Of a stretch of 64,000 nucleotides of DNA, positions 2,452 through 60,753 are shown one piece after another (the stretch's first letter is position 1; every line of letters begins with the position of its first letter). The notes under the pieces are model-generated. The model was not told the origin of the DNA, made no database searches, and saw only the letters and a list, made by a program, of their open reading frames with translations. Made by a program: the position numbers and the translations under genes. Origin of the DNA: Anaerolineae bacterium (GTDB lineage Bacteria; Chloroflexota; Anaerolineae; UBA1429); assembly GCA_963675785.1 (NCBI GenBank), contig OY776562.1, forward strand, positions 1,678,893-1,742,892, given 5' to 3'.

Positions 2452-2452
2452 G

Positions 2453-3895: not shown

Positions 3896-3896
3896 G

Positions 3897-5378
3897 CTAG
3901 GCACCTCCGGGAATGAGCAATCCGGCGGCGGCACTGCCCCAGCCATAGAGCAGGCCGGGAAACAACCCCAGTATGAGCACCAGCAGCACAGCCGCCGCAG
4001 TAGACCAACGCATGGCCGCTGGCACCTGTTGTACGGCCATATCCAGCGGGGCTTGGCCGCTGTTTACGCGCACAACAAGCCATACCGCGTACATGGTCGT
4101 AGCCAGCGGTGCCAACAGTTCCAGCACGGCCAACAAGCTATAGGGCGCAGCAAACCCGGCCAGGATGATTTGCAATTCGCCGTAAAAGGCGGCAAAGGGC
4201 GGTAGCCCGGCAATAGCCATGGCGCCCAGTGCCAACCAAAGGCCAGCCCCGGGCAATACCCGGGCCAGTCCACGAATCCGCTCAATATTGCGCCGCGAGG
4301 TGGCCAGCATGATCCAGCCCACGGCCATAAACAGCGCTGCTTTGATCAAGCCGTGGGTAACCACCTGCATCACGGCGCCGGTCAGGCCGGCCTCACTCAG
4401 CGTACCGATGGCAAAGAGCACATAGCCCATCTGGCTGACGCTGGAATAAGCGACGATGCGTTTGATGTCGTGTGAAGAGATGGCCATCAGGGCGCCGTAT
4501 ATCTGTGACACCAAACCGGCGATCATCAGCGGCACTTGCAAGGGCTGTAATGCCGCCACGCCCAAAATGCCCACGGCAAAACGCATCATGCCATAGGCAC
4601 CCATGCTGAGCATAGCCCCAGCCAACATCACCGTCACCGGCATGGGAGCGATCGAGTGGGCATCGGGCAGCCAGGTGTGCAATGGAAAGACTGCCAACTT
4701 GACGCCAAAGCCCAACACCAACAAACCAGCCAACCAAGTGAGCGTCGTGGCAGGAATTCCTGCCGCCATAGCCTGGCCAGTCATATCGGTGGTACCAGAG
4801 TGAACCGCCATATAAGCCAGCACGCCCAGCACCGTCAGCGAGCCAAGCTGGGTATAGAGCACGTACTTGAACGTAATGCGCCCAACCTGCTCGCCACTGC
4901 CCCACCACAAGAGCAATAAGCTGGAGGCTACCAGCATGAGTTCCCAAAAGAGGAAAAAGACCAGCGCATCGTGGGCCAACACGGTGCCCACCATACTGCC
5001 GCAAAAGGCAGCCATGAGCGCATAGACGACGTGCCCGCGTGGAAAGCTTTGTAAATAGCCCAGACCGTACAGGCTGGCCAACAGTGTTACGCTCAGCACG
5101 GTGATGGCAAAAGGCCGGGCCAGGGCATCCAGCACCAGGCTAAAGGATGGCCCGTTCTGAATCCAAGGCAGTGAGAAGGAGCTTGCAGGTGCGACAATCA
5201 CTAAAACGAGGGTAGCTCCCACAGCGGTACAGGTCGCCACACCGGCGATGCGCGTCCGCTTGGTCAGCCGCGCGGGCAAGACGAAACTGATCAGGCTTGC
5301 CGCCCAGGGCAGTATCAGAATGAGAGCGAGCATCCAGGGCAAGGTTAGCCTCCTACAATAACGAAAATACAGCAACAA
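3897..5378 (-). CDS. Antiporter-like membrane subunit (NuoM/MrpD family)
   Basis: HTWLPDAHSIAPMPVTVMLAG motif; polytopic, 493 aa. An alternative start at 5333 is possible. Confidence 0.8.
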   Translation of the reverse strand: MLLYFRYCRRLTLPWMLALILILPWAASLISFVLPARLTKRTRIAGVATCTAVGATLVLVIVAPASSFSLPWIQNGPSFSLVLDALARPFAITVLSVTLLASLYGLGYLQSFPRGHVVYALMAAFCGSMVGTVLAHDALVFFLFWELMLVASSLLLLWWGSGEQVGRITFKYVLYTQLGSLTVLGVLAYMAVHSGTTDMTGQAMAAGIPATTLTWLAGLLVLGFGVKLAVFPLHTWLPDAHSIAPMPVTVMLAGAMLSMGAYGMMRFAVGILGVAALQPLQVPLMIAGLVSQIYGALMAISSHDIKRIVAYSSVSQMGYVLFAIGTLSEAGLTGAVMQVVTHGLIKAALFMAVGWIMLATSRRNIERIRGLARVLPGAGLWLALGAMAIAGLPPFAAFYGELQIILAGFAAPYSLLAVLELLAPLATTMYAVWLVVRVNSGQAPLDMAVQQVPAAMRWSTAAAVLLVLILGLFPGLLYGWGSAAAGLLIPGGA

Positions 5379-6666
5379 AAGCCAGCGCTAGTACAATCAG
5401 GCCGGCCATCCAGGCCAGATTGGCCCGCAGCTTGCCCGTGTGCAGGCGGCGCAAACGGCGCCCTACCTCCAATGCTGAACGCTGTACATTGACAAAACCC
5501 TTTTCAAGGACATGCTCATCGATGGCGCTGGCCGCACGCGAGGCGCTCTCGGTCAAATGCCAAACCCAGGCATTGAGTGGCTCTAGCAGCCGCGTCTCGA
5601 CGAATAAGGCCGCAATCGAAAGCCTATCCCATCTTGTGTTCAATGGGGCGTTATCAGCGTATTCGCCCCGAGCCTCGTCCACAACTCTTGGGGCAGACAG
5701 GATCATCAATACCCCTCGCAGCGGCATGAAAGAATAGAGATAGGCATATGGCCAGCCCAGAGGCACAATCACCAGCGCAAGCGCCCCATGTGCTACTTCC
5801 AAATGGTGCAAGCGCAACCTGCTTTCGGCTCGAACAGCGCAAATCAGAGCCCAGATCATGATTCCGGCACCGGCCACAACCAAAGGAGTCGTCAGGTGCA
5901 GTGCCTGAATGCCGCCCTCCAAACGATAGAGCAAATAGGCGCCCAACAGAGGTAGGCCCGCCGTAGCCGCCGACCATCGTTCAGGGCTAGCGATCTCGCC
6001 TGCAACGGCTAACCAGCGATCAAATGGATAGAGGCCCAGCTTGATCCACACTGCCAACAGGCCCATCAGTACTGCCAGCCAGGTGGTACCATCGGCTGCC
6101 TGGGCAGCGGCAGCCAACATGGGGGAGATGAGCAGCGTGTCGTGGGCCTGCCAGAGCACGATGATAGCCCCCAGCAAAGCCAGATCGCCCAAACGCAAAG
6201 TGAGAAAAGAGCCGACTAGATCGCGCCAATTGCCGCGACGTACCGTCATAACCAGCGTGGCCAAAGCAGCCGCCTCCAGAAAGGCATAGCGGTAGAGAAA
6301 ATGGTTGACGTTCAGCGCAGCAAAAGAGGCAGCCAGCAAGATCGGTGCAGCCAAAGCCTGCCACCAGGCCGACGCAGGTTGATCGGCATCTTGCCAAAGC
6401 AGCAGGGCATAGCCCAGAATGGCCAGCCCGCTCAACTCGGTGCCGCGCTCATCCAGGGCAATCACTCCCGGCTCGATCCAGGGAATCCAGCCCAGATTGA
6501 TCGTTGAAGCATCGCGGTGAACTAGGGCCACCAACGCAGCCAAAGCAACAGCTACCGCCACCATACGCAATAGCCGCGCGCGTTTGGCTGTAACCGGAGC
6601 AGGCAAGGTACGCAGCAGTCCTCCTGCCAAAGCCAGTGCCAGCGTTGCCATGATGAAATAGATCAT
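5353..6666 (-). CDS. Divergent third antiporter-like/polytopic membrane subunit (NuoL/MrpA-superfamily-like, degenerate motif)
   Basis: 437 aa, very hydrophobic, with a degenerate FDRWLAVAGEIASP in place of HTWLPDA. Its position between the MrpC-like and MrpD-like genes fits an antiporter-like subunit. Confidence 0.5.
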   Translation of the reverse strand: MIYFIMATLALALAGGLLRTLPAPVTAKRARLLRMVAVAVALAALVALVHRDASTINLGWIPWIEPGVIALDERGTELSGLAILGYALLLWQDADQPASAWWQALAAPILLAASFAALNVNHFLYRYAFLEAAALATLVMTVRRGNWRDLVGSFLTLRLGDLALLGAIIVLWQAHDTLLISPMLAAAAQAADGTTWLAVLMGLLAVWIKLGLYPFDRWLAVAGEIASPERWSAATAGLPLLGAYLLYRLEGGIQALHLTTPLVVAGAGIMIWALICAVRAESRLRLHHLEVAHGALALVIVPLGWPYAYLYSFMPLRGVLMILSAPRVVDEARGEYADNAPLNTRWDRLSIAALFVETRLLEPLNAWVWHLTESASRAASAIDEHVLEKGFVNVQRSALEVGRRLRRLHTGKLRANLAWMAGLIVLALAFVAVFSLL

Positions 6667-7674: not shown

Positions 7675-8454
7675 CTATCTACAACAGAGTGTGCCTTCAC
7701 GGGGACAGGCGCCGGTGCATTCCATGCAGCGAATGCATTCCATGCTGCGCTCTACCTCGGTAGATGGGTCAATATCCATGGGACAGATGGCTTCACAACG
7801 CCCGCAAGAGACACAACTGGTCTCATCGGCCTTGATGCGCCAACGAGAGAATAAGTTGGTGACGGAGAGCACCGCCCCCAGAGGACAAGCATAGCGGCAC
7901 CAAAAACGCTCAATAGCGATGGACCAAATCAGGAATACGACGACCACGCCAGCACCCAGGGCACTGCCTACATTCATGGTGAACAAGGTACGGTAGGGAC
8001 AAAAGGCCATGAGGGGCGGCACCACAGCGGTGATGCTGGCATAGATCACCCAGCCCAGCACCAGCCACTTGACCCAGCGCATAGGACGGTCGAGCCAACG
8101 CGGCAGATGAATGGGCAACCAGTGCTTGCGCCCACCGGTAATGCGCCGCAAAAAGCGGCTAATCCAACCCTGTACCGTGCCCAAGGGGCAAAACCAACCA
8201 CAGAACACCCGACCAAAGAGAACCCCAGAGATCAACACTAGCCCCAGCAACACCAAATTGATGATGCTGGTATAGCGTAAAACGGTGCCTGAAGTAAGAA
8301 AAGTTGAGATCAACTCAATGCCACCCATGGCGCAAATGGCGTCAAAGGAAGCAATGAGCCCCAGTGAAAAGGCTATGCCGATGCCGATGGCAATGAGTAA
8401 GCCAATACCCTGCGAGATGCGGCGGTAGATCTGAAGGCGATTCTTGGCCGCCAT
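7675..8454 (-). CDS. NapH/MauN/CcoG-type membrane-bound 4Fe-4S polyferredoxin
   Basis: CGWFCPLG and CRYACPLG motifs in the TM region; C-terminal ferredoxin motifs CVSCGRCEAICP and CIRCMECTGACP. Confidence 0.75.
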   Translation of the reverse strand: MAAKNRLQIYRRISQGIGLLIAIGIGIAFSLGLIASFDAICAMGGIELISTFLTSGTVLRYTSIINLVLLGLVLISGVLFGRVFCGWFCPLGTVQGWISRFLRRITGGRKHWLPIHLPRWLDRPMRWVKWLVLGWVIYASITAVVPPLMAFCPYRTLFTMNVGSALGAGVVVVFLIWSIAIERFWCRYACPLGAVLSVTNLFSRWRIKADETSCVSCGRCEAICPMDIDPSTEVERSMECIRCMECTGACPREGTLCCR

Positions 8455-9281
8455 CAGTGACTGCCCCTGCCGGAGCCACTGGAAGAACTGGAAAGCTGCT
8501 CATAGAGTGCGGGCTCGGAGTAATCACAATAGCCATTGCCGTTGGAATCGACATAGTCATGGCACAAGCCGGGATAAGGATCCCAAACCTGCCCTTTGGG
8601 ACAGGCTACTTGCCCAGTGACGCTGGTATCGACGGTGGAATCGGATGTCACAGCAGGCACGGCGGTTGCCGTCGCTGTTGCGACCGCAGTTGTGGCCGTT
8701 TCCTCGATCAAAGTATCTGATGATTCTTCGGGCTCAGACAGGTCGCAAATGGCGTTGTTGTTCAGATCGCAATAGCGATTGCACTGACCCGGGAAGGGAT
8801 CATTCAATATGCCAAAAGGACAAGCAACCACAACAGCAGCAGTCGCCGTTGCTTCGGCGGTAGCCTCAGCAGTTGCGGATGATTCTGTTGTTGCATCCGG
8901 TGTAGCCGTGGCCATTGAATCAGCCGCAGGTTCGGAATAGTCGCAATAGCCGCTGCCGGTGGTATCCACGTAATTGAGGCACTGGCCGGGGTAGGCATCG
9001 TACTGTAATCCAAAGGGGCAAGTGGAGACGAAACTGGAATCCACAGTTACCGTTGCAACAGCCGCTGCCGCAGCCGTCGTGGCGCTGGATGATTCTATGC
9101 GGTCGCACAATGCGTTGCCATTGGCATCGTAACAGGCAGCACAGGGGCCAGTGCAAATGCCATCAGCCGAAATGGGGCAATCGCTCACGATGTAAAGTCC
9201 ACCCATGGCTCCGGTAGCAACCACGCCTCCGGCAAGCACCAGGAACTGTCGGCGGTCGAGTTTTCGTTTCTTGGGGACCAT
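8454..9281 (-). CDS. Tat-exported Cys-rich repeat protein (four copies of a ~31-aa CP-x-G…PGxC…D-x-N-G-x-G-x-CD-x-SEP module); novel
   Basis: Twin-arginine motif KRKLDRRQFLVLAGG. Modules: CPISADGICTGPCAACYDANGNALCD, CPFGLQYDAYPGQCLNYVDTTGSGYCDYSEP, CPFGILNDPFPGQCNRYCDLNNNAICDLSEP, CPKGQVWDPYPGLCHDYVDSNGNGYCDYSEP, separated by Ala/Thr/Ser linkers. Start chosen at ATG 9281 (MVPKK…), which has AGGAAGGG upstream; the ORF-track start 9314 has no RBS. Confidence 0.65.
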   Translation of the reverse strand: MVPKKRKLDRRQFLVLAGGVVATGAMGGLYIVSDCPISADGICTGPCAACYDANGNALCDRIESSSATTAAAAAVATVTVDSSFVSTCPFGLQYDAYPGQCLNYVDTTGSGYCDYSEPAADSMATATPDATTESSATAEATAEATATAAVVVACPFGILNDPFPGQCNRYCDLNNNAICDLSEPEESSDTLIEETATTAVATATATAVPAVTSDSTVDTSVTGQVACPKGQVWDPYPGLCHDYVDSNGNGYCDYSEPALYEQLSSSSSGSGRGSH

Positions 9282-9398
9282 TATACCCTTCCTGTGTATG
9301 GTTGGATAAAGCATATTAGATGACTATAGTATAAGGAATAAATGTTCGTGAAATGTTAAGAGTCAATCAGGATGTTGCATAGTTAAAGCTGTTCTTAC

Positions 9399-27504: not shown

Positions 27505-27981
27505 ATGAAAGCACTGGTCGTTTATGACTCTGTCTTTGGCAACACGGAAAAAGTTGCACAGGCTATTGGGGAGACACTGGGTACAAGAGCGGAAACCGCA
27601 GTCGTGCGGGTAACCGAGATCAAACCAGAGCAGCTCACTGACATTGATCTGTTGATTGTAGGTTCACCAACGCGAGCCTTTCGCCCCATGCCAACCATCA
27701 AAGCATGGTACGGCGCATTGCCACTGGGTGCCCTAAGCGGCATCAAGGTAGCAGCTTTTGATACTCGTATCCGTCTGGAGGATACCACCTCTGGTTTCCT
27801 AAAAAGGATGAGCAAGTGGTTTGGGTATGCTGCTGAGCCCATGGCCAAAGCTTTGCAGCGCAAGGGCGGCATATTAGCAGCACCTCCAGCTGGCTTTGGT
27901 GTAGGAGACAGTGAAGGCCCCCTCAAAGAGGGTGAGCTAGAACGTGCCACCGCCTGGGCCGAGCAGGCCCTAAAAGCCTAA
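27505..27981 (+). CDS. Flavodoxin-domain protein
   Basis: MKALVVYDSVFGNTEKVAQ (flavodoxin FMN-binding loop). Confidence 0.7.
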   Translation: MKALVVYDSVFGNTEKVAQAIGETLGTRAETAVVRVTEIKPEQLTDIDLLIVGSPTRAFRPMPTIKAWYGALPLGALSGIKVAAFDTRIRLEDTTSGFLKRMSKWFGYAAEPMAKALQRKGGILAAPPAGFGVGDSEGPLKEGELERATAWAEQALKA

Positions 27982-28982: not shown

Positions 28983-29432
28983 ATGACCAAGGTTCTCGTT
29001 CTGTATCATTCGCAAGAGTACGGCAACACGAGAAAGATGGCCGAAGCACTGGCCGAAGGCGCCCAACAGGCCGGCGCCGAGGTTGAGTTGGTAAACACCA
29101 ACGAAACACGTGCCAGCATAGAGGCGTTTCGTGCCGCTGATGCAGTGGCCATCGGCACACCCGACTATTTCAGTTATATCGCTGGCAATCTCAAGCAGTT
29201 TTGGGACGACTGGTACATCGCTCAAAGAATTGACCCCAAGGGCCTCAAGGACAAGCCGCTGGCGTTATTCTGCACCCATGGCGGAGGAGGCAAAGCACGA
29301 GGTGTGCTAGAGAATCTTGCCAGAGAGCTGGGCACCCCTGTGAGCGAGACCATTGCCTCACAAGGTGCCCCCGACAGGGACACGATAGCTGCACTGAAAG
29401 AACTGGGTGAAAAGCTGGTGGAGGCAATCTAG
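28983..29432 (+). CDS. Flavodoxin-like fold protein (WrbA/NAD(P)H:quinone oxidoreductase-like)
   Basis: KVLVLYHSQEYGNTRKMAE plus a C-terminal …CTHGGGG… loop. Confidence 0.65.
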   Translation: MTKVLVLYHSQEYGNTRKMAEALAEGAQQAGAEVELVNTNETRASIEAFRAADAVAIGTPDYFSYIAGNLKQFWDDWYIAQRIDPKGLKDKPLALFCTHGGGGKARGVLENLARELGTPVSETIASQGAPDRDTIAALKELGEKLVEAI

Positions 29433-30846: not shown

Positions 30847-31686
30847 ATGACGAGCTTTCCCATGACCCACATTGAAAACATCGAGATCTCGCGTATGATG
30901 ATCGGCAGCAACTGGTTTATGGGCTATTCGCACTATTCGGCAGCCAAAAGCCAGTGGATCAAAGAATATATGACTATCGAGCGCATTACCGAGGTGATGT
31001 GCGTCTTTGCTCGCAACGGCATCAATACCGTCATGTCCATCGCCAACGACCCCATGAAAGAGGCCATTCGCCGCGTCGAGGTGGAAACAGGCGTCAAAAT
31101 GGTCTGGGTTTGCACGCCATCGGGCGAGCATCTGGAGGATCTGCTGCCCAACATCGAATACACCGCCGAGATGGGCGGGGCCATCTGCATGCCCCATCAG
31201 CATTGGACTGATGGCAACCTGATAACCAACGAAAAGCGCCTCATCGGTCTGGAAAAGGCCACCGAGCGCATTCGTCAATTGGGCATGATCCCCGGGCTCT
31301 CAACACACCGCCCTGAGACAGTAACCGTGTGCGATGCTGCTGGCTATGATGTGGCTACCTATATTCAGATTCTCAATCCCATCGGGTTTTTGTGCCAGGT
31401 TGAGACTGATTGGGTCGAGCGGGTCATTCGTTCTACGCCCAAACCCATCATGTGCATCAAGCCGTTGGCCGCTGGCCGAGTGCTGCCCACCACCGGTTTG
31501 AACTATGTCTACAACGCCATCAAGCCCATCGATACGGTGTGCATTGGCACCTTAAGCCCGTACGAAGCAGAGGATGACATTGCCATCGCCCGAGAACTAT
31601 TGGCCGCTCAGAAGGATGCCTGCTGCGAGGAACGTACCCTGGATTATTCGCGAAGCAAGAGCGCCCTGGTGCAAAAGGAGGATTAG
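30847..31686 (+). CDS. Hypothetical protein
   Basis: ATG 30847 with GGAGG 6 nt upstream. No motif recognised. Confidence 0.45.
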   Translation: MTSFPMTHIENIEISRMMIGSNWFMGYSHYSAAKSQWIKEYMTIERITEVMCVFARNGINTVMSIANDPMKEAIRRVEVETGVKMVWVCTPSGEHLEDLLPNIEYTAEMGGAICMPHQHWTDGNLITNEKRLIGLEKATERIRQLGMIPGLSTHRPETVTVCDAAGYDVATYIQILNPIGFLCQVETDWVERVIRSTPKPIMCIKPLAAGRVLPTTGLNYVYNAIKPIDTVCIGTLSPYEAEDDIAIARELLAAQKDACCEERTLDYSRSKSALVQKED

Positions 31687-31687
31687 T

Positions 31688-32209
31688 ATGAGCCGCGTTC
31701 AGGTTCCGTACGATCATAAACTGGATGAAACCCTGGCCTTGTTGCGAAACCCGGGGCTCTTGTTGGCCTCAACAAAAGCCGACGGCAAATCCAATGTGAT
31801 GACTATTGGCTGGGGCACAGTGGGTGTTATTTGGGGGCTGGATATATTTGTGGTGATGGTACGCCCTTCCCGCTACACCTACGAATTCATCGAAGAGAGC
31901 GGCGTGTTCACCGTCAATGTGCCCTCACCTGATCTGCGTGAGTTCTGCCGCATAGCTGGCTCACGAAGCGGGCGCGATATGGACAAGTTCGCCGAGTTCA
32001 AACTGAGCACCACGCCGGGACGCAACGTTCCTGCCGTGACCATCGACGCTTGCCCACTGGCGTATGAATGCCAAGTAGTGCACCATAACGACGTCATACC
32101 AGCCAACCTGTCTCCTGATGTGGAAGCCAAATCGTATCGCGGCCATGACTATCACCGCATCTACTATGGACAGATTATGGGCGTTTGGGAAAAGGTTGCA
32201 GAAAAATAG
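31688..32209 (+). CDS. Flavin-reductase-like FMN-binding split-barrel domain protein
   Basis: …KADGKSNVMTIGWGTVG… motif. ATG 31688 right after the upstream stop, with AAGGAGG upstream; the ORF track starts at 31574 in the same frame. Confidence 0.65.
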   Translation: MSRVQVPYDHKLDETLALLRNPGLLLASTKADGKSNVMTIGWGTVGVIWGLDIFVVMVRPSRYTYEFIEESGVFTVNVPSPDLREFCRIAGSRSGRDMDKFAEFKLSTTPGRNVPAVTIDACPLAYECQVVHHNDVIPANLSPDVEAKSYRGHDYHRIYYGQIMGVWEKVAEK

Positions 32210-32259
32210 CCTGAAGACTAGACTACATAAAAGCTGTTCTTTCTGTACGGAGGGGCCTT

Positions 32260-32826
32260 ATGCCCGATATAGTAGAAGCCACAATTCGCGATGTGGGCAC
32301 GATCCACGTCACCTGTGAGCGTTGTGGCCACGAATACGAATACGACCAAATCTTTTTGGGCAAAACCGAAGTGCGTCGCATCGATCCGCGTCCCGATAGC
32401 ATCAAGGCTCTCAAAGTCATGGCGGAACAGATACGCTCGGGTTTCGGCAAAGGCGATTACCGCCGGCTAGAATGGCACCGCTGCCCCGAATGTGGTTTTA
32501 CCCAATCGTGGATGGCAAAACGTACCCGCAAGTCACTAACAATGCGCATCTTTTTTCCGATTATTCTCGTTGCATTGCTCGCCGGCAGTATCATGGCCAT
32601 GTTCCAAAGCGACGCTATGATTGGCGGACAGATCCTTCGAACGGCCTTTTATGTAGTGGGCGGTGCTCTAGTGGCTGGCTCATTATTCTGGCTGTTTTAC
32701 AGGCCGCCCCGCCATGGCGTTGAAAGGATCATCCCACCAACGCTGACTTTTAGTTCGGAAAGCCCCGAGGCTCTCAACGAAATGATTGTGGGCAACTTGC
32801 CTGACGATCGACCAGGCGAAAGATAG
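32260..32826 (+). CDS. Hypothetical protein with N-terminal zinc-ribbon (CERCGH…CPECGF) and two TM helices
   Basis: CxxC…CxxC pattern plus hydrophobic segments. Confidence 0.45.
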   Translation: MPDIVEATIRDVGTIHVTCERCGHEYEYDQIFLGKTEVRRIDPRPDSIKALKVMAEQIRSGFGKGDYRRLEWHRCPECGFTQSWMAKRTRKSLTMRIFFPIILVALLAGSIMAMFQSDAMIGGQILRTAFYVVGGALVAGSLFWLFYRPPRHGVERIIPPTLTFSSESPEALNEMIVGNLPDDRPGER

Positions 32827-32900
32827 ACGGCTAGATTCTTGACCGGCCTCAGGTCGTAGCCTATACTCCCCTCTGTTCTAGCGGACAGAGGGGAGTTCTT

Positions 32901-33782
32901 TTGTACAACGTTCAAGATCTTCAGGCTCAATACCAGCGAGCCCTCGCGCTTGTTGAAACACAGTCCATTCCTATGGCTGCGAATAAGTCTCTTTATGTCA
33001 ATCGCCCCGTAGATACCCTGCCTGTTTCAGTAACGGGTACTGCCTGCAGCCTCAAATGTGCCCACTGTAATGGGGTGTATCTGGAGCATATGTATAGCCT
33101 GGATGACCTGGCTCATTCTCAGGCCCCCAGTGCGCTTATCTCTGGCGGTTGCGATCCCCACGGCTGTGTGCCCATCGCCCCTCATCTGGAGGCTCTTCGC
33201 TCGGCAGGCCAGGGCAAGCGCCTGAACCTTCATCTGGGGTTGGTAGATAAAGAAACGGCTGCCGCTGTTGGCCCCCTGGCTTCGGTCATTTCCTTCGATG
33301 TGGTCGGCAGTCGCGAAACTACCCGTCGTGTGTACGGCCTAGACGTCGACCTCGATACCTACATTGAGACGTTGGAGCGGCTGAACCAATATACCCGTGT
33401 GGTGCCCCATATCACTCTGGGGCTGGATGGCGGCAAAATTGTTGGCGAGCCTGAAGCCATTCAGGCGGTTGCCGCTTGTAATGTGGCTGCAGTAGTCTTT
33501 ATCGTGCTCATCCCCACAGCGAATACCGCGTTTGCAGAATGTAATCCACCCGCTCTCGACGAGGTAACCGCCCTGCTGATGCAGGCACGCCGCCTTATGC
33601 CCCATAAACGACTGGACCTAGGCTGTATGCGACCCCATGGTGCTTACCGGCAATACGTTGATGAATTGGCTATTCGTGCCGGCATCGATGGCATCGTCAA
33701 CCCGGCGCACAGTGCCCTGCAACTGGCGCGCGAACTGGATATGCGCATTATCGAGGGAACAGAATGCTGCGCTCTGAGCTAG
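32901..33782 (+). CDS. Radical SAM protein with extra Cys clusters (candidate lipoyl-synthase component, LipS1/LipS2-like)
   Basis: CSLKCAHC (CxxxCxxC), plus additional Cys (GGCDPHGC, ECCALS) compatible with an auxiliary Fe-S cluster. Confidence 0.6.
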   Translation: MYNVQDLQAQYQRALALVETQSIPMAANKSLYVNRPVDTLPVSVTGTACSLKCAHCNGVYLEHMYSLDDLAHSQAPSALISGGCDPHGCVPIAPHLEALRSAGQGKRLNLHLGLVDKETAAAVGPLASVISFDVVGSRETTRRVYGLDVDLDTYIETLERLNQYTRVVPHITLGLDGGKIVGEPEAIQAVAACNVAAVVFIVLIPTANTAFAECNPPALDEVTALLMQARRLMPHKRLDLGCMRPHGAYRQYVDELAIRAGIDGIVNPAHSALQLARELDMRIIEGTECCALS

Positions 33783-34780
33783 ATCATGATAAAACCTGGC
33801 GCGTCTCCTCGGGGACGGCAGTCGCCGCCGACCTGCTCAATGAGCGCGTCGATGTGCTGCCCACCACTGCCTACCTGATGTTGGGTGAACGCTGCCAGTA
33901 CAATTGTGCCTTTTGTGCCCAGGCACATGGCAGCCGGGCTAACGAAGCTGCTCTTTCACGGGTGCTCTGGCCGCAATTTCCCATTACTCAAGTCATCGAG
34001 GCCGTTAGCCATGCTTACACAGAAGGTACGCTGCGCAGAGCCTGTTTCCAGGTAACAGTGGGCGCCGATTCGTTAGAAGAAACGCTAGCTGCCGTGCTGG
34101 TTTTGCACACAGCCGTCGCAAGTATTCCCATCTGTGCTTCCGTGTCCGTACATAACATGGACGATGTAGCTGCCTTGCTGGAGGCTGGCGCCGACCGCGT
34201 TACCCTCTCGTTGGACGCCGCTGCAGAACGCATTCACAAGCAGGTCAAAAGCGGTTCGTGGGAGCGTACCTGGCATCTGCTGAGAGAAGCCTCAGCCACT
34301 TGGCCAGGGCACATCGGTACCCATGTCATTGCCGGGTTGGGCGAAACCGAACAAGAGATGGCCGAAACGCTGCAACAACTGGTCGATCTTGGGGTGAGCA
34401 TTGGCTTGTTTGCCTTTACGCCGTTGCACGGCACGCCCATGGCCAATCAACCACCTCCCGCCCTGGATTCATACCGGCGTATTCAAGCCGCCCGCTGGTT
34501 GATGATCCATCATCATGTTCGAGTTGAGGCAATGAGCTTTGATGGCGCTGGCTGCATGACCAGCTTGGGGTTGTCGAGTAAGCAGTTAGCCGAGCTTTTG
34601 GCCGATGGAGAGGCTTTTCGCACGGCAGGCTGCCCCGACTGCAACCGCCCCTATTACAATGAACGCCCTGCTGGCCCTATATACAACTATCCGGCGCCCT
34701 TGACGGCGCAACAGGCCAGCCAAGAACTTGATCTGCTGCTGGCCAACCTATCGGATGCAACATCCCTAAAAGAGGAGTAG
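33764..34780 (+). CDS. Radical SAM protein (candidate lipoyl-synthase component, LipS1/LipS2-like)
   Basis: CQYNCAFC (CxxxCxxC), plus a C-terminal CPDC; translationally coupled to the previous gene (19-nt overlap). Confidence 0.6.
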   Translation: MLRSELDHDKTWRVSSGTAVAADLLNERVDVLPTTAYLMLGERCQYNCAFCAQAHGSRANEAALSRVLWPQFPITQVIEAVSHAYTEGTLRRACFQVTVGADSLEETLAAVLVLHTAVASIPICASVSVHNMDDVAALLEAGADRVTLSLDAAAERIHKQVKSGSWERTWHLLREASATWPGHIGTHVIAGLGETEQEMAETLQQLVDLGVSIGLFAFTPLHGTPMANQPPPALDSYRRIQAARWLMIHHHVRVEAMSFDGAGCMTSLGLSSKQLAELLADGEAFRTAGCPDCNRPYYNERPAGPIYNYPAPLTAQQASQELDLLLANLSDATSLKEE

Positions 34781-34784
34781 CTCC

Positions 34785-35879
34785 ATGACGCAAACAGCCC
34801 TCTATAACAGGCACGTCGCCCTTGGCGGCCGTATGGTTGACTTTGCTGGATGGGAATTGCCCATTCAGTATGCCACCGGCCCCAAAGCCGAACACCACTG
34901 CGTGCGCAATCATGCCGGCCTCTTTGATATCGACCATATGGGCCAAGTTCGCGTCTCCGGCCCCGATGCAGTGCCTTACTTGCAGCATATACTTACGGCT
35001 AACATCGCCCGGCTTGTGCCCAGCCAGGCCCGCTATGCACTGATGTGCTATGCCGATGGCGGTATTGTGGATGATGTATTCGTCTATTGCGAGGCCAGTA
35101 GCTATATGCTGGTCATCAACGCTGCCAACCGGGATAAGGATATCCGTTGGTTAGCGTATCACGCTGACGATTACGACGTGCAGGTCGACAACATCTCGGA
35201 CGAAACCTACATGCTGGCGTTACAAGGGCCCCAGGCTCAGGCGGTACTGCAAAACCTTGCCTCATCTGATCTGGATACTATCGGCTTTCACAAACACGCC
35301 CATGTCTCACTAGACGGCGTAGACACACTGGTGAGCCGCACAGGCTATACGGGCGAAGACGGCTTTGAGCTATATTTTGACGCTGCTGCCGCAAGTAATC
35401 TATGGGACGCCATTCTAGAGGCGGGAGTGCCCTATGGCGTACAGCCCATTGGCCTGGCTGCTCGCGATTCGCTGCGGTTGGAGGCTGCTATGGCTTTGTA
35501 CGGCCACGAGATTCACGCCCAAACCAACGCCATTGAGGCCGGGCTAAACTGGGCGGTTTCCTATAAAAAAGGGGATTTCATCGGTCGTGATGCGATTCTC
35601 AAAGCCAAATTCGAGGGGACGGTACACACGTTGGTGGGTTTGCGCATGGTTGAAAGAGGTGTACCCCGTGAGCACTATGAGATAGCTCACATGGGCGAGT
35701 TGATCGGTCATACGGCCAGCGGCGGTTACGCACCCACTCTCGATGCCTTTATCGCCACAGCTTTTGTTCAGGGCGAGTATGCCCAAGCGGGCACAGAGCT
35801 GGATGTCATCATGCGCGGTCAACCCCGCAAGGCTTTGGTAGTCGATCTGCCCTTTTATGAGCCGCGATACAAGCGCTAA
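34785..35879 (+). CDS. gcvT: Glycine cleavage system T protein (aminomethyltransferase)
   Basis: N-terminus TALYNRHVALGGRMVDFAGWELPIQY and overall GcvT sequence. Confidence 0.9.
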   Translation: MTQTALYNRHVALGGRMVDFAGWELPIQYATGPKAEHHCVRNHAGLFDIDHMGQVRVSGPDAVPYLQHILTANIARLVPSQARYALMCYADGGIVDDVFVYCEASSYMLVINAANRDKDIRWLAYHADDYDVQVDNISDETYMLALQGPQAQAVLQNLASSDLDTIGFHKHAHVSLDGVDTLVSRTGYTGEDGFELYFDAAAASNLWDAILEAGVPYGVQPIGLAARDSLRLEAAMALYGHEIHAQTNAIEAGLNWAVSYKKGDFIGRDAILKAKFEGTVHTLVGLRMVERGVPREHYEIAHMGELIGHTASGGYAPTLDAFIATAFVQGEYAQAGTELDVIMRGQPRKALVVDLPFYEPRYKR

Positions 35880-38800
35880 CAGTCCAGATTGCTTGTATCA
35901 ATAGCAGGCACATATAACGAGAATGTCGTGCCACGATTGGGTTCGGAATGGACCCTTATGCCGCCGCTACTTTGGCTGATCAGATACTTGACCGTAGCCA
36001 GCCCTAGGCCGTAATGATTGCTATCATGACGCGTAGTATAGCGATAATCGAATAAATGTGCAGCATGTTCCGGGTCGATACCGCGGCCCGTATCATGTAC
36101 CGAAACACAGCCATAGAGGCCCGTGTTGATGCCTAACTCATCAGCCAGCGGCTTGGTTATCTGCTCCAAACTGGAGCGTATGTCAATCTTGCCACCCTCT
36201 GGCATAGCATCACGCGCATTCACACAGAGATTGAGCAGTACGCGATCAAACCAGGTCTGATTCATCCGTACATATACAGGATCAGACGCAAGTTGGAGTC
36301 TCAACTCGATATCGGTGCCGAGAAGCCGACCAATGCTCTTTTGCAGCTGCCCCACCTCAGAGTTGACTGCCACCAGCATTTCTTCGTCTTCCGACTGACC
36401 CAGAATACCCTGGAGCATGTTATCCGACATGGTATGGGCCTGTGCGATGTGCTTTACCAGTTCTCCGTATTCCCCCAGAACCGCCTCTTTATCCCCTGCT
36501 GAATCTCGAATAGAATCGGCAACTGCCCTACACACAGTCAATAGATTGATGAAATCGTGGGCCGTTCCCTTGGTCAGGGATTGGGCGGCCCGCAGGCTTT
36601 CCGTCTCCCGCACAATGCCTTCCAACCGCCGGATATCCGTTACATCGCGAATCAGCAACGCAACCTGCTTGCCTCTATCCGTGCCATACCCAAACGCCAA
36701 CATCTCGGCGTCAACTAGACCATCAACGCCTTGAACAGTTACCACACCGCCTTCACGAACAATGCGTCGGTTACGCAGTGCCTGGTCGAGCTGTAGAACC
36801 ATCGTTCGAGGTTGAACGTTCAAGCGCTCTTCGACCTCGCTGGCGTGCAAGCCGCGCCAGCTTTCAGCAACACCAAACAAGTAGTAACCAACACCGTTTC
36901 CAGATTGCAGTGTGAGATCAGCATCAAACAGAAACAAAGCGTGCCCCATGTTCTCAAAAATGCTACGGAAATTCTCTTCGGACTCCCGCGTGCGGCGCTC
37001 TATTTCTTTGCGTTGCGAGATATCCATCACTGCGCTGTACCAGCTGCCCTCTCCCCTTTCCCCATGCAACCTGTACTGGGGAGAGACAAGCGTCGGCACA
37101 ACGCGGTTGTCGTCGTGCCATGCGACTTCTTCTGTTTGGTTAGCCGCGTGGTGTGTAAACATCAAGGGCTCTAGCTCGTAACGTGCTGCAAGATCCAAGA
37201 ACTCGCCAACCTGCCGCCCAAAAAGCTCGGCTTCATTTCGCCCGAGCATGCGACAAAAGGCTTCGTTGGCTGCATAGATGCGACCGTCATCGCGATAGAG
37301 CACCAATCCCTCATTCAAACTTCCGGAAAGATCGGCAAACTCGTCACGGCCTTCGGCAGCAGCACGCTCCGAGCGCGTTCGCTCGGTTACATCACGCACC
37401 GAGCCAATAACACGCACTGGGTGGCCCTCATCATCGTATTGCAGCGTATTCGCCACCTCAATATGCCGATAGGTGCCATCTTTGGTTCTCAAGTATTCAC
37501 GCACTAAAACGGGCCAAGTTTGTTCATCGCCACGTTGATTGGCGCGCATCTCGTAAAGACGCCGAACCAGCTTTTCTCGGTCATCGGTCTGCAGTCGACT
37601 TACCAACAAAGCCATTCCACCATCGAGCCATTCCTGAACGCTATAGCCGGTGATCTTAGCCAAACCCTCAGAAGCAAACTCGAATTCTTCTGTCCACAGG
37701 TTGATCATATAAACGCCATCGGAACTGTTGTTGAGTATGGTAGAGAGAAAATCCGAGGTTCGAGCCAATTCATCGGCATGTGCCTGGCGGCGCATAGCGC
37801 CAGAAATAGTGGCCGCACACCCCTTGAGCGCTACAAGCTGCGCATCCGTAGGCTCTTGGTTCGCATCGCTGTATTCTACCCATAGGCCGCCCCATATACC
37901 TGTTTCACTCTGGATAGGCAGGACGACAATCAGAGCCACAGCACGCGATTCAAACTGCGAACGCATACGTTCGGGCATATCCTGACGCAGAAATTGGATC
38001 GCCTGCCCTCCAGAAAAAGCACGCTGAAATTCCCGACGCACATCTTTTTGGGACTCCAAGATGCTGCCCAGAATACTGATCAGTTCTCTATCCGCACCAG
38101 AGGGCCAGGCATCCACCTGCACCGGCAGAGCATCCGGTTCGCCATAATGTACCAGGCGCACATATTTTGCACTGGTAGCCTGCCCCATGGTCTCTAATAC
38201 CTGGGGGAGCACATCCTGCCAACGCTTGGCTTTGAGCATCATTTCGGCAATCAAGCCAGCAGCCTGTCCGATGCGTTTGGTGATCTCTTGGCGCTGCTCG
38301 ATTTTTAGCTGTTCGGTAATATCTGTGATGGTAACGTTCTGAAGCCCTTGATCAGAACAAGGAATCGTGCCGATGCGTATGCTCACCTCACGGGTGGCAC
38401 CATCAGGGCGAACCAACGTGGTTTGGAATATCGTGGGAGAAAGTTTGAATCGTGACTCGCGGAAGTGCTTCTCGACCTCTGCTTGCTTGTCGGGCTGCAC
38501 AAAGTCGATGAAATCACGCCCATAGACTTCACGCAGCGAACGCACCCCTAAAAGTTCCAAAGCACTTTGCGAAGCATAGTAGAACCTGCCCTCGGCTTCA
38601 CGCAGAACGGGATTAGAGTTGCTTTCCAAATAACGCTGATAACGCAAGGCCCGATGCGGGGGATTGGTAAAGCTGCCAAGGCTCACGCCTGTCGTTCGTA
38701 CCAGCATCAGTGTTGTGCTCAAATCCAATATCGATAGCCGTGCTGTGCGCAGTTCGACATCACGCTCGATGCCCTGTGCAGAGACGAGGGTGCACTCTAC

Positions 38801-56456: not shown

Positions 56457-58463
56457 TTAGGAATGATCCGCGGGGACGTCCCAGAAGTAGGTCTGGGGGT
56501 TGTGTAGATCCTCGTCCTCAGTCGTGTCGTCCACTGGCTGGCCATCGAAAGCCAAGTTCTTCATGCCGTTCTTGACGATGCACAGCGCGGGCTTTTCACC
56601 TAGTATGCCAATCATCGGCACCTGCTCGACCCAGATGTCCAAGATGTTCCTGAAATACTGGTTGCGCGCCTCTTCATCAGGTTCAACCACCATCGCCGCA
56701 TGGTTGTCCCAGATGTCCCAGATCCAGTGGCCCTCGGGCGGCTCTTCAGCATTAGGATACGTGGCATCCCTGTTGTTGTTCCAGTAAATAGCCCAGGCAG
56801 CACACCAGGGGCGGTCGTTCATGGAACCAATAAAGATCCACGGCGCCACGATCGGCAGTACTGAGCGGTCACCACCCCAGTTCGCCGCTTCGATCTCGTT
56901 GGCCTCATAGTGCTCTGTATACAGCGAACGCTCGTTGTACTTGTAAGCACAGTTGATGCCTATATCGTTCCAGTACCCAATGGTCAAAAGAGCAACATCC
57001 TCACCCACTGAGCCGCTCGAGTCAGTGCCTTCGATGGTGAAGGACAACGTGCTGCCATCCGGATACTCGCGGAGGCCATCTCCGTTGGTGTCCACATAAC
57101 CTGCGCCATCCAGCAAGCTCTTGGCCGTCTCTGGATCGTACTCGATGTAACTGTTGCTCAACGCCTCATAGTATTGCGGCGAGACGCTGAGGGGGCTGTA
57201 CTGACGCGGTGTGCACTGCCCGTCATACACCAGCTCGTTGATCTCTTCGCGGTTGATAGCCAGCATAAAGGCCTTGCGCACATCCAGGATATTAAAGAAC
57301 TCGCGCAGCGGCTCGTTCTTCGTTGTCAGGTTCAGCTGAATGCCATCGTGGCTGGCATTAATACCCACAGCGACTTTGTAATCGCCGCTTGCCTCGCTCT
57401 CCTTGAAGAGGGTATAGTTGCCAACGTCCACGTGACGGTACTGCATGTCGATCTCGCCGTTCACAGCCCACATGTTGAACACGTCAATGGTCTCGAACAA
57501 GCGGTGCTGAACCTTGTCGATGTAGGGCAGCTGCTGTCCGGACTCGTCTACCTGCCAGAAATAGGGGTTGCGGTTCATGATGTGCAGCTCGACAGACAGG
57601 TCCGTCTCTGGCGTCCAGGGGAAGAGTAGCGGCACTTCAGGATTGGTGCGCCAGCTCTCCTGGTTGGTCCAATAGTCAATGGGCGTGCTCAAACCAAGCG
57701 CCTCTGCCGCAGCCTGCAATGTGGCTGCATCGTTAAAGGCGGGGTGGAACTGCTCCAGATAGAAACCGGGATCCTGCGGAAGGTTGCGGGCCAACTCGTA
57801 AGCCAACAACGGCTTGGGCTCACCATAGGTCAGTGTGAAGGTAAAGTCATCCACAATGCCTAGATCCGCTGCTACTCGTGGAGTGCCCCATCCCCAACGC
57901 TCGGATGGCGTTGAAGTAATGTCCGTATAAGTCTGCACATTGTCCCAATACCACTTGACCCACTCGGTGGTAAACGGTGTGCCGTCACTGTACTTGGTGC
58001 CGGCGCGCAACGTTACTGTCCACACCGTCGCATCATCGTTCAATTCCCAGCTCTCGCACAGGTTGGCACGCAGAGCGAGATCGGGAGTGTACCAAGTCAG
58101 CCCTTCGTTGATAAACTTGGAGGGGCCGTTGCCATCCGATGTACCTTTGAAACCACGGCGCAGCGTGCCGCCATAGTTGCCCACCGATTCCATCACCGGG
58201 CATACACAGGGATTCTCTGGCAAACGATCTTCCACCGCCGGAAGCGTACCCGCCTCAACCATTTCGGCCAGCATTGGGGCTTCTGAGTAGGAGCTCACTA
58301 CGGGCGCAGTAGTCGCTGCTGCGGCAGTTGTGGGTGCAGTAGTCGCTGCTGCGGCAGTTGTGGGCTCGGGCTCCTCAGTCGGCTGGGCACAGGCAACCGC
58401 TACCGTCGCAGCAGCTGTTAGTGCCGATACTCGCAAAAACTCTCGACGTGTAATTTCTGACAC
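56457..58463 (-). CDS. ABC-transporter substrate-binding lipoprotein, family 5 (DppA/OppA-like), copy 1
   Basis: Tat/lipoprotein signal TRREFLRVSALTAAATVAVACAQ; GNYGGTLRRGF motif; Ala/Thr linker TTAAAATTAPTTAAAATTAP. Confidence 0.85.
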   Translation of the reverse strand: MSEITRREFLRVSALTAAATVAVACAQPTEEPEPTTAAAATTAPTTAAAATTAPVVSSYSEAPMLAEMVEAGTLPAVEDRLPENPCVCPVMESVGNYGGTLRRGFKGTSDGNGPSKFINEGLTWYTPDLALRANLCESWELNDDATVWTVTLRAGTKYSDGTPFTTEWVKWYWDNVQTYTDITSTPSERWGWGTPRVAADLGIVDDFTFTLTYGEPKPLLAYELARNLPQDPGFYLEQFHPAFNDAATLQAAAEALGLSTPIDYWTNQESWRTNPEVPLLFPWTPETDLSVELHIMNRNPYFWQVDESGQQLPYIDKVQHRLFETIDVFNMWAVNGEIDMQYRHVDVGNYTLFKESEASGDYKVAVGINASHDGIQLNLTTKNEPLREFFNILDVRKAFMLAINREEINELVYDGQCTPRQYSPLSVSPQYYEALSNSYIEYDPETAKSLLDGAGYVDTNGDGLREYPDGSTLSFTIEGTDSSGSVGEDVALLTIGYWNDIGINCAYKYNERSLYTEHYEANEIEAANWGGDRSVLPIVAPWIFIGSMNDRPWCAAWAIYWNNNRDATYPNAEEPPEGHWIWDIWDNHAAMVVEPDEEARNQYFRNILDIWVEQVPMIGILGEKPALCIVKNGMKNLAFDGQPVDDTTEDEDLHNPQTYFWDVPADHS

Positions 58464-58746: not shown

Positions 58747-60753
58747 TTAGGAATGATCCGCAGGGACGTCCCAGAAGTAGGTCTGGGTGTTATGGAGATG
58801 CTCGTCCTCAATGGTGTCATCCACTGGCTGGCCGTCAAAAGCAACGTTCTGCAGACCATTCTTGACGATGCATGGAGCCGGCTTTTCGCCCAGGATACCA
58901 ATCATCGGCACCTGCTCGACCCAGATGTCCAAGATATTCTTGAAATACTGGTTGCGCGCCTCTTCATCAGCCTCAACCACCATCGCCGCATGGTTGTCCC
59001 AGATGTCCCAGATCCAATGGCCTGCGGGCGGCTCTTCGGCATTAGGATACGTGGCATCCTTGTTGTTGTTCCAGTAAATAGCCCAGGCAGCACACCAGGG
59101 GCGGTCGGTCATAGAGCCAATAAAGATCCACGGTGCCACGATCGGCAGTACTGAGCGGTCACCACCCCAGTTTGCCGCTTCGATCTCGTTGGCCTCATAG
59201 TGCTCTGTGTACAGCGAACGCTCATTGTACTTGTAAGCACAGTTGATGCCTATAGCGTTCAGGTAACCGATAGCCAAAAGGGCGACATCCTCACCCACTG
59301 AGCCGCTCGAGTCAGTGCCTTCGATGGTGAAGGACAACGTGCTGCCATCCGGATACTCGCGGAAACCGTCTCCGTTGGTATCCAAATAACCTGCACCGTC
59401 CAACAAGCTCTTGGCCGTCTCTGGATCGTACTCGATGTAGCCGTTGGTCAACGCCTCATAGTATTGCGGCGAAGCACTGAGGGGGCTGTACTGACGCGGT
59501 GTGCACTGACCGTCATACACCAATTCGTTGATCTCTTCGCGGTTGATAGCCAGCATAAAGGCCTTGCGCACATCCAGGATATTAAAGAACTCGCGCAGCG
59601 GCTCGTTCTTCGTTGTCAGGTTCAGCTGAATGGCATCGTGGCTGGCACTGATACCCAGAGCAACCTTGTAATCGCCGCTCTCTTCGCTCTCCTTGAAGAG
59701 GGTATAGTTGCCAATGTCCACGCTGCGGTTCTGCATGTCGATCTCGCCGTTCACGATCCACATGTTGAACACGTCGATGGTCTCATACAGACGGTGCTGA
59801 ATTTTGTCGATGTAGGGCAACTGCTGCCCGGACTCATCTACCTGCCAGAAATAGGGGTTGCGGTTCATGATGTGCAGCTCGACAGACAGGTCCGTCTCTG
59901 GCGTCCAGGGGAAGAGTAGCGGCACTTCAGGATTGGTGCGCCAGCTCTCCCGATTGCTCCAATAGTCGGTAGGCGAGCTCAAACCAAGCGCCTCTGCCGC
60001 AGCCTGCAATGTGGCTGCATCGTTAAAGGCGGGGTGGAACTGCTCCAGATAGAAACCGGGTACCTGCGGAATGTTACGGGCAAACTCAAAGGCCAACAAC
60101 GGCTTGGGCTCACCATAGGTCAGTGTGAAGGTAAAGTCATCCACAATGCCTAGATCCGCTGCTACACGCGGGCTGCCCCAACCCCAACGCTCGGATGGCG
60201 TTGATGTGATATCTGTATAGGTCTGCACATTGTCCCAATACCACTTGACCCACTCGGTGGTAAACGGTGTGCCGTCACTGTACTTGGTGCCGGCGCGCAA
60301 CGTTACTGTCCACACGGTAGCATCGTCGTTTATCTCCCAGCTCTCGCACAGGTTGGCACGCAGAGCGAGCTCAGGAGTGTACCAAGTCAGACCTTCGTTG
60401 ATCAACTTGGAGGGGCCGTTGCCATCCGATGTACCTTTGAAACCACGGCGCAGCGTGCCGCCATAGTTGCCCACCGATTCCATCACCGGGCATACACAGG
60501 GATTCTCTGGCAAACGATCTTCCACCGCCGGAAGCGTACCGGCCTCAACCATTTCGGCCAGCATTGGGGCTTCTGAGAAGGAACTCACTACAGGCGCAGT
60601 AGTCGCTGCTGCGGCAGTTGTGGGTGCAGTAGTCGCTGCTGCGGCAGTTGTGGGCTCGGGCTCCTCAGTCGGCTGGGCACAGGCAACCGCTACCGTCGCA
60701 GCAGCTGTTAGTGCCGATACTCGCAAAAACTCTCGACGCGTTACCTTGGGCAT
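58747..60753 (-). CDS. ABC-transporter substrate-binding lipoprotein, family 5, copy 2 (paralog, roughly 90-95% identical by eye)
   Basis: 668 aa, collinear with copy 1 with scattered substitutions (MPKVTRREF…). Confidence 0.85.
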   Translation of the reverse strand: MPKVTRREFLRVSALTAAATVAVACAQPTEEPEPTTAAAATTAPTTAAAATTAPVVSSFSEAPMLAEMVEAGTLPAVEDRLPENPCVCPVMESVGNYGGTLRRGFKGTSDGNGPSKLINEGLTWYTPELALRANLCESWEINDDATVWTVTLRAGTKYSDGTPFTTEWVKWYWDNVQTYTDITSTPSERWGWGSPRVAADLGIVDDFTFTLTYGEPKPLLAFEFARNIPQVPGFYLEQFHPAFNDAATLQAAAEALGLSSPTDYWSNRESWRTNPEVPLLFPWTPETDLSVELHIMNRNPYFWQVDESGQQLPYIDKIQHRLYETIDVFNMWIVNGEIDMQNRSVDIGNYTLFKESEESGDYKVALGISASHDAIQLNLTTKNEPLREFFNILDVRKAFMLAINREEINELVYDGQCTPRQYSPLSASPQYYEALTNGYIEYDPETAKSLLDGAGYLDTNGDGFREYPDGSTLSFTIEGTDSSGSVGEDVALLAIGYLNAIGINCAYKYNERSLYTEHYEANEIEAANWGGDRSVLPIVAPWIFIGSMTDRPWCAAWAIYWNNNKDATYPNAEEPPAGHWIWDIWDNHAAMVVEADEEARNQYFKNILDIWVEQVPMIGILGEKPAPCIVKNGLQNVAFDGQPVDDTIEDEHLHNTQTYFWDVPADHS

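Follow-up and report, generated by a model that had tools for sequence, protein, structure and literature searches.

The stretch analyzed here, 64,000 nucleotides of contig OY776562.1 from an Anaerolineae bacterium (GenBank assembly GCA_963675785.1, positions 1,678,893 to 1,742,892; hereafter the window), carries two overlapping radical S-adenosylmethionine (SAM) genes directly upstream of gcvT, the gene of the glycine cleavage T-protein. The resulting lipS1-lipS2-gcvT operon very probably encodes a two-component, BioB-related lipoyl synthase that would act at C8 and then at C6 of the octanoyl chain. All three genes lie on the plus strand. The lipS1 gene, open reading frame (ORF) 1, spans 32901-33782 from a TTG start and encodes 293 residues; lipS2 (ORF2) spans 33764-34780 from an ATG and encodes 338 residues; and gcvT (ORF3), the third gene of the operon, spans 34785-35879 from an ATG and encodes 364 residues. 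Homology predicts sulfur insertion at C6 for the lipS1 product and at C8 for that of lipS2. The membership of both proteins in their families, the conservation of their cluster ligands, the anatomy of the operon and its conserved synteny are observed directly. The pair is a clear bacterial example, beside gcvT, of the two-protein lipoyl synthase that has already been described.

Assignment of the two radical-SAM proteins

An earlier note on this DNA, made from the letters alone, had proposed that the pair is a split lipoyl synthase of the LipS1/LipS2 type, and this proposal is now supported by equivalog models, by BLASTP comparisons and by the conservation of the cluster ligands. ORF1 scores 260.8 bits with the NCBIfam LipS1 equivalog model NF053742 (cut-off 230; profile positions 6-268 of 268), and ORF2 scores 345.1 bits with the LipS2 equivalog model NF053743 (cut-off 270; profile positions 1-292 of 292). 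BLASTP analysis pairs ORF1 with LipS1 of Thermococcus kodakarensis (TK2109; 34% identity, E = 5e-40) and ORF2 with LipS2 of the same archaeon (TK2248; 37% identity, E = 1e-68), the cross-pair matches being weak (E = 0.17 for ORF1 with LipS2, and 3e-04 for the other combination). Both reference sequences come from the supplement of PMC9585515 and were machine-read, their residue numbering drifting by 1-2.

The two proteins could instead exert another function of the BioB-like radical-SAM enzymes (biotin synthase, HydE/HydG, PylB or ThiH-type), in which case their adjacency to gcvT would be coincidental. Pfam does leave room for such an assignment, as it reports only the generic Radical_SAM domain, with ORF1 staying below threshold at 13.5 bits, and many database homologues are labelled 'radical SAM protein' or, more to its advantage, 'biotin synthase-related'. 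The specific models argue otherwise: while both LipS models are passed, LipS2 reaches 61.8 bits with BioB (TIGR00433, cut-off 225) and 37.9 bits with LipA (TIGR00510, cut-off 310.25), LipS1 matches neither, and the HmdB and PylB models remain far below their cut-offs (16.9 bits for PylB). Clear orthology to another radical-SAM family, which the earlier note had named as the outcome contrary to its proposal, did not emerge for BioB, HydE, HydG or PqqE, and Pfam scans of essentially all ORFs of ~150 residues or more find no bio, hyd or pyl gene in the window.

The assignment of the third gene is straightforward. Its product scores 383.6 bits with TIGR00528 (cut-off 235.85) and 419.2 bits with PRK00389, also above cut-off, and contains the Pfam domains GCV_T (3.4e-95) and GCV_T_C (1.9e-19). 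Judged by its sequence, it is a true GcvT.

Cluster ligands and predicted fold

Each protein exhibits the CxxxCxxC motif that had been read from the sequence, namely CSLKCAHC in ORF1 (residues 49-56) and CQYNCAFC in ORF2 (residues 44-51). The cluster ligands of the T. kodakarensis enzymes have been found by mutagenesis, and two histidines were pointed out, H159 of LipS1, which is fully conserved, and H178 of LipS2, which lies nearby (PMC9585515). The further cysteines that the earlier note had considered suitable for auxiliary Fe-S clusters fit this picture, all the ligands implicated by mutagenesis being conserved in the window proteins. In LipS1, the radical-SAM cysteines C49/C53/C56 correspond to C27/C31/C34 of the T. 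kodakarensis protein, the auxiliary [4Fe-4S] ligands C242/C289/C290 to C230/C276/C277, and H170 to H159. In LipS2, C44/C48/C51 correspond to C39/C43/C46, the auxiliary [4Fe-4S] ligands C94/C290/C293 to C85/C276/C279, and H187 to H178. The C-terminal CC and CxxC-NRPYYNE signatures are likewise common to the window proteins and the T. kodakarensis enzymes. The LipS1 ligands and H170 are invariant in 45 database homologues, and the LipS2 ligands and H187 in 43; the same holds for a further set that covers Chloroflexota, Bacillota, Bathyarchaeia and T. kodakarensis, in 64 of 64 LipS1 and all 84 LipS2 sequences. This complete and invariant set of auxiliary ligands is specific to LipS1 and LipS2 and argues against another radical-SAM function.

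Another cysteine of LipS1, C84 (codon at 33150-33152, within an SGGCD motif), is present in 63 of the 64 LipS1 sequences, across Chloroflexota, Bacillota and Bathyarchaeia. It is replaced by a methionine in T. kodakarensis, the source of the sole characterized enzyme, so that mutagenesis there could not address its role.

The AlphaFold model of LipS1, calculated with 45 sequences, has a predicted local distance difference test score (pLDDT) of 95.6 and a predicted template modelling score of 0.93, and shows a full triosephosphate isomerase (TIM) barrel resembling those of BioB and HydE. Its nearest solved folds are BioB, HydE, PylB and HydG, LipA ranking 36th or lower. Taken by itself, this ranking would suit a biotin synthase-like or HydE-like function; the PDB holds no solved structure of LipS1 or LipS2. 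The nearest solved relatives of LipS2 by sequence are biotin synthases, with weak BioB matches only. This kinship in fold and sequence matches the placement of both LipS1 and LipS2 in the BioB-like group in the literature.

Anatomy of the operon

The gene junctions are as tight as had been reported. The 19-nucleotide overlap of the two radical-SAM genes is confirmed, the shared stretch being 33764-33782, and gcvT indeed starts 4 nucleotides past lipS2, after a gap at 34781-34784. Each gene is preceded by a Shine-Dalgarno sequence: GGGGAG, 5 nucleotides ahead of the TTG at 32901; GAGGGA, 5 nucleotides ahead of the ATG at 33764 and hence within lipS1; and AGAGGAG, ahead of the ATG at 34785. The overlap, with its internal Shine-Dalgarno sequence, suggests that the translation of both subunits is coupled. 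The overlapping junction is itself conserved, with lipS2 starting at -19 from the lipS1 end in most Chloroflexota loci and at -4 or -16 in Bacillota loci. At the other end, gcvT terminates with a TAA (35877-35879) that shares nucleotides with the stop codon of a convergent gene (35876-35878, minus strand) encoding a PAS histidine kinase of 1064 residues, and the operon therefore ends at gcvT; no intergenic terminator separates these two genes. Homology and context point to lipS1-lipS2-gcvT being co-transcribed as a three-gene operon.

The ATG at 32973 (M25) was weighed as another possible start of lipS1, because the TTG sits on the T-tail of a hairpin, and was rejected on several grounds. The protein recorded in the database for the source contig (P0126) has the same 293 residues and hence the TTG start; the GGGGAG Shine-Dalgarno sequence lies at the proper place for the TTG; the N-terminal helix (residues 4-20) has block-mean pLDDT values of 92-96 in the AlphaFold model; and both the TTG and the reading frame are conserved in the nearest relative, locus L088.

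Gene order in related genomes

The nearest LipS1 and LipS2 homologues are 50-58% identical and come from metagenome-assembled genomes of Anaerolineae and other Chloroflexota. One closer relative, L088, is a partial copy from the Joint Genome Institute (JGI), the LipS1 fragment of which is 87% identical. Among the species-representative genomes scanned, at least 588 contain a LipS2 relative, the best match having 56% identity. The gene order was tabulated in 82 loci, many of them on short contigs, so the counts that follow are lower bounds.

A gcv gene lies near the pair in 51 of the 82 loci, across two bacterial phyla. Such a recurrence is not a coincidence and completes the case against a BioB-, HydE/HydG-, PylB- or ThiH-like function, which, with both LipS models passed and the specific ligands in place, appears extremely improbable. 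Among the 36 Chloroflexota-labelled loci, lipS1 is adjacent to lipS2 in 24 and any gcv gene is found in 18, while an Lpl/LipM gene occurs within 5 kb in 4 and lpd within 5 kb in none. The 38 loci from Bacillota and other bacteria all have lipS1 adjacent, and 33 of them have a gcv gene, 31 an Lpl/LipM gene within 5 kb and 25 lpd within 5 kb. Linkage to gcv is found in none of the eight Bathyarchaeia loci, where lipS1 is adjacent in three, Lpl/LipM lies within 5 kb in one, and lpd within 5 kb in none.

The position of the pair relative to the gcv genes differs between the two bacterial groups. The Chloroflexota order places it upstream, as lipS1-lipS2-gcvT-gcvH-gcvPA-gcvPB: gcvT is the gene immediately after lipS2 in 15 of the 36 Chloroflexota-labelled loci, often with gcvH-gcvPA-gcvPB behind it. 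The attachment of gcvT only, as in the window, is also seen in L003 and L086. The Bacillota order has the pair downstream, as gcvT-gcvH-gcvPA-gcvPB-lipS1-lipS2-lplA/lipM-lpd, with lipS1-lipS2 coming immediately after gcvPB in 31 of the 38 loci from Bacillota and other bacteria. The gene that follows lipS2 in Bacillota encodes a protein of the catalytic-domain-only LplA/LipM type (PF21948), and the next one is lpd (TIGR01350). No explicit published description of lipS1-lipS2 being regularly embedded in a gcvT operon was found in the literature; this regular embedding is an incremental observation.

About ten Chloroflexota-labelled loci (L021, L024, L026, L037, L052, L059, L060, L064, L070 and L075), several on short contigs, contain a LipS2 homologue with no detectable adjacent LipS1 or gcv gene. 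These loci may represent a different arrangement or a paralogue.

Proposed pathway and acceptor protein

The following scheme can be proposed for the two-component synthase, in which the order of sulfur insertion and the acceptor protein are deduced from homology and context. In a first step, an enzyme of the LipM/LplA type encoded outside the window would load an octanoyl group onto the lipoyl-lysine of GcvH and perhaps onto that of further lipoyl domains. The radical-SAM cluster of LipS2 (C44/C48/C51) would then generate a 5'-deoxyadenosyl radical that abstracts a hydrogen from C8, and the auxiliary cluster (C94, C290, C293) would give up a sulfur, yielding 8-mercaptooctanoyl-lysine. LipS1 (C49/C53/C56, with auxiliary ligands C242, C289 and C290, near H170) would subsequently thiolate C6 and thereby complete the lipoyl group, each subunit consuming a sulfur from its own auxiliary [4Fe-4S] cluster. 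The conserved linkage to gcv genes makes GcvH the most likely acceptor, and co-transcription with gcvT would tie the supply of the lipoyl cofactor to the expression of the glycine cleavage system.

Several points weigh against this scheme. The published experiments on bacterial LipS1/LipS2 have so far all used LbpA as the acceptor, not GcvH (PMC10332631), and a canonical LipA co-exists in 27 of the 62 Chloroflexota genomes that bear LipS1/LipS2 (PMC10332631). Co-transcription is deduced from gene spacing and from nothing else. Moreover, homologues of LipB, LipM, LplA, GcvH, GcvP and Lpd were not found in the 64 kb, which were searched by tblastn with locus-derived GcvH, GcvPA, GcvPB, Lpl/LipM (36 proteins) and Lpd in addition to the Pfam scans; with the ligase, gcvH, gcvP and lpd absent from this span, both the acceptor and the octanoyl-attachment step are assumed.

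The coexistence with LipA bears on a narrower question, namely whether the pair, while being true LipS1/LipS2, is redundant or specialized, a LipA encoded elsewhere serving the 2-oxoacid dehydrogenases and the pair being dedicated to GcvH or used conditionally. This is a serious possibility, if somewhat short of an even one. The co-occurrence of LipA is common in bacteria, extending to 42 of the 106 Firmicutes genomes with LipS1/LipS2 (PMC10332631), and the tight gcv linkage would fit a role dedicated to GcvH. On the other hand, LipA is missing in 35 of the 62 LipS1/LipS2-bearing Chloroflexota genomes (PMC10332631), and the absence of a LipA-like gene from the window, already remarked upon in the earlier note, is confirmed, no ORF of at least 70 residues having the LipA Cx4Cx5C motif, so that the window itself has no bearing on this possibility. 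A division of labor of this kind refines the proposed scheme and does not contradict it.

The choice of LbpA in the bacterial experiments raises a different issue, since the pair might serve a sulfur-oxidation LbpA/sHdr system, as in the Proteobacteria studied, rather than glycine cleavage. The sHdr system is indeed present in 42% of the LipS1/LipS2-bearing bacteria and in 50 Chloroflexota genomes (PMC10332631). Such a role is nevertheless very improbable for the window pair, whose conserved immediate neighbor is gcvT and whose relatives carry the full gcvTHP set. Within the window, tblastn detects no GcvH/LbpA-like gene, and the Pfam scans of its ORFs of ~150 residues or more report no CCG/Hdr-type, DsrE or Lpl(AB) family, so that no sHdr, LbpA or LipT neighbor is found by these searches.

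The upstream region

The region preceding lipS1 combines a promoter-like site with a hairpin. The former, TTGACC-17 nt-TATACT (32839-32867, plus strand), matches 10 of 12 consensus positions, is the best such site in 31000-37000, and is the candidate promoter of the operon. Both hexamers are identical in L088, where the spacer differs, and L086 has TTGACG-17-TATACT; a TATA[AC]T sequence occurs in the 230 nucleotides ahead of lipS1 in 17 loci of the Chloroflexota type, one of them the window, and in none of the Bacillota loci. The hairpin (32865-32896, plus strand) is a terminator-like match made of a perfect 14-bp, G+C-rich stem followed by TTCTTTT, and its region folds at -37.8 kcal/mol (z = -4.6). 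The two elements are intertwined: the promoter-like site overlaps the base of the hairpin (32865-32867), the 3' arm holds the lipS1 Shine-Dalgarno sequence GGGGAG (32890-32895), and the TTG start follows the TTCTTTT. The stem is conserved in L088, where the loop differs, and in L086 five positions are changed on both sides with pairing kept. A transcript starting ~7 nucleotides past the -10 box would not include the 5' arm; the hairpin therefore probably serves the gene upstream, as a terminator or insulator that interlocks with the promoter of the operon.

This upstream gene (32260-32826, plus strand) encodes a zinc-ribbon-like membrane protein of 188 residues, in which two CxxC pairs are combined with two hydrophobic helices at the C terminus. 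A database of 5.8 billion proteins contains only 5 homologues of this clade-restricted protein, whose zinc-ribbon matches are weak. The gene lies directly upstream of lipS1-lipS2 in all four other lineages examined (L003, L084/85, L086/87 and L088), at 6340-6912 in L003, 6001-6570 in L084, 4017-4586 in L086 and 593-1159 in L088. A link of this protein to lipoylation, for instance as an anchor, is conjectural. Further upstream, a 173-residue protein of the Flavin_Reduct family (PF01613; Pfam 7.2e-18) is encoded at 31688-32209 (plus strand), starting with the ATG at 31688. In L088, the gene ahead of the zinc-ribbon gene also encodes 173 residues, with 87% identity to the window protein, and a PF01613 gene has this position in four of five lineages (the window, L088, L084/85 and L086/87, not L003). 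That this flavin reductase supplies the reductant to the radical-SAM pair is, again, a conjecture. Two flavodoxin genes (27505-27981 and 28983-29432) were considered as conserved partners and discarded, as they are not beside the lipS genes in the relatives.

If these elements are taken together, the Anaerolineae sub-clade might have its own, so far undescribed accessory set, composed of the flavin reductase, the zinc-ribbon protein and the interlocked leader, with the pair as the sole lipoyl synthase of the organism. The flavin reductase and the zinc-ribbon membrane protein would then replace LipT and the adjacent ligase, and the interlock of the -10 box, the hairpin and the ribosome-binding site would restrict translation to transcripts that begin at the promoter of the operon itself. 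This elaboration is unlikely.

Other features of the window

Neither a glycine riboswitch nor any other Rfam family is detected at gathering thresholds in the whole window, and no tRNA is found there. Beyond the pair, the CxxxCxxC motif occurs in one further ORF of at least 70 residues in the 64 kb. An ORF of 286 residues (8454-9314, minus strand) displays such a motif, CTGPCAAC, and has no Pfam match; it adjoins the gene of a multi-Fer4 protein (7675-8454) and a complex-I/Mrp/[NiFe]-hydrogenase-like set (181-6666). Elsewhere, two tandem genes encode 668-residue SBP_bac_5 solute-binding proteins (56457-58463 and 58747-60753, both on the minus strand) whose 93% identity suggests a recent tandem duplication; heparinase-like and GH127 genes lie beside them.

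Significance and comparison with known systems

The earlier note had implied that a bacterial LipS1/LipS2 would be new, which is not borne out. The family, its bacterial occurrence and its tie to lipoate-dependent systems are already published, and curated hidden Markov models name the family. GCV_H and lipoate-ligase neighbors of LipS genes were noted in 2022 (PMC9585515). The bacterial sLpl(AB)-LipS1/S2 pathway was then shown experimentally, with LbpA of sulfur oxidizers as the acceptor, and GTDB mapping located the Lpl/LipS1/S2 combination in 0.9% of bacterial genomes (Tanabe et al. 2023, PMC10332631). Chloroflexota were counted in that survey, 41 of the 62 genomes with LipS1 and LipS2 having Lpl, and an occasional direct linkage of LipS1/S2 to canonical lipoate genes was described in Sporomusa (PMC10332631). 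The locus raises no new question. It confirms that the lipoyl synthase made of two proteins, although first encountered in hyperthermophilic archaea, is regularly built into the glycine-cleavage operons of Chloroflexota and Bacillota, and it provides a clean annotation for genes still widely called 'radical SAM protein' or 'biotin synthase-related'. Its practical value is modest: as the published bacterial experiments were confined to LbpA, a GcvH-linked LipS1/LipS2 from an organism that is not a sulfur oxidizer could be used for tests of acceptor specificity.

The first report of the T. kodakarensis LipS1/LipS2 two-component synthase is said to be that of Jin et al. in 2020. In that archaeon, LipS2 converts octanoyl-lysine into 8-mercaptooctanoyl-lysine, and LipS1 thiolates C6 (Neti et al. 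2022, PMC9585515). The window proteins belong to the same two families, with the same Cx3Cx2C motifs and auxiliary ligands, and their chemistry is presumably the same, C8 then C6. The differences concern the host, a Chloroflexota-like bacterium of moderate GC content instead of an archaeon, and the gene arrangement, the window genes being adjacent, overlapping and joined to gcvT without a neighboring lplA/lplB.

The sulfur-oxidizer pathway of Thioalkalivibrio and Hyphomicrobium denitrificans likewise involves a bacterial LipS1/LipS2 synthase linked to lipoate-related genes. Its clusters, however, are organized as lipS1-slpl(AB)-lipT-lipS2 beside shdr-lbpA and act on LbpA, whereas the window has gcvT as the partner and PF01613 and zinc-ribbon genes upstream. 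The Lpl(AB) or LipM gene expected alongside lipS1/lipS2 in the pathway of Tanabe et al. (2023) is absent from the 64 kb, as are LipT and the sHdr-LbpA neighbors, which are frequent, not obligatory (PMC10332631).

The gcv clusters of Bacillota (Sporomusa, Desulfofundulus, Pelosinus and others; L023-L080) are similar to the window locus in having overlapping lipS1-lipS2 genes within a glycine-cleavage operon. Their pair comes after gcvPB and is followed by the ligase/transferase gene and lpd, whereas that of the window and of other Chloroflexota precedes gcvT, which in the window sub-clade is the only gcv gene still attached.

As for the single-protein enzymes, LipA catalyzes the same net reaction by the same logic, a radical-SAM cluster and an auxiliary [4Fe-4S] cluster that is sacrificed being applied to an octanoyl group bound to a protein. 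It differs from the pair in consisting of one polypeptide, in which an N-terminal Cx4Cx5C motif, lacking in both window LipS proteins, is joined by a C-terminal RSSY motif, and in placing sulfur at C6 first. BioB, the closest solved relative in fold and sequence, shares with the pair the insertion of one sulfur per active site, the terminal carbon being served first; it differs from LipS1 and LipS2 in its auxiliary cluster, [2Fe-2S] or [4Fe-5S] and held by other ligands, and in its substrate, free dethiobiotin.

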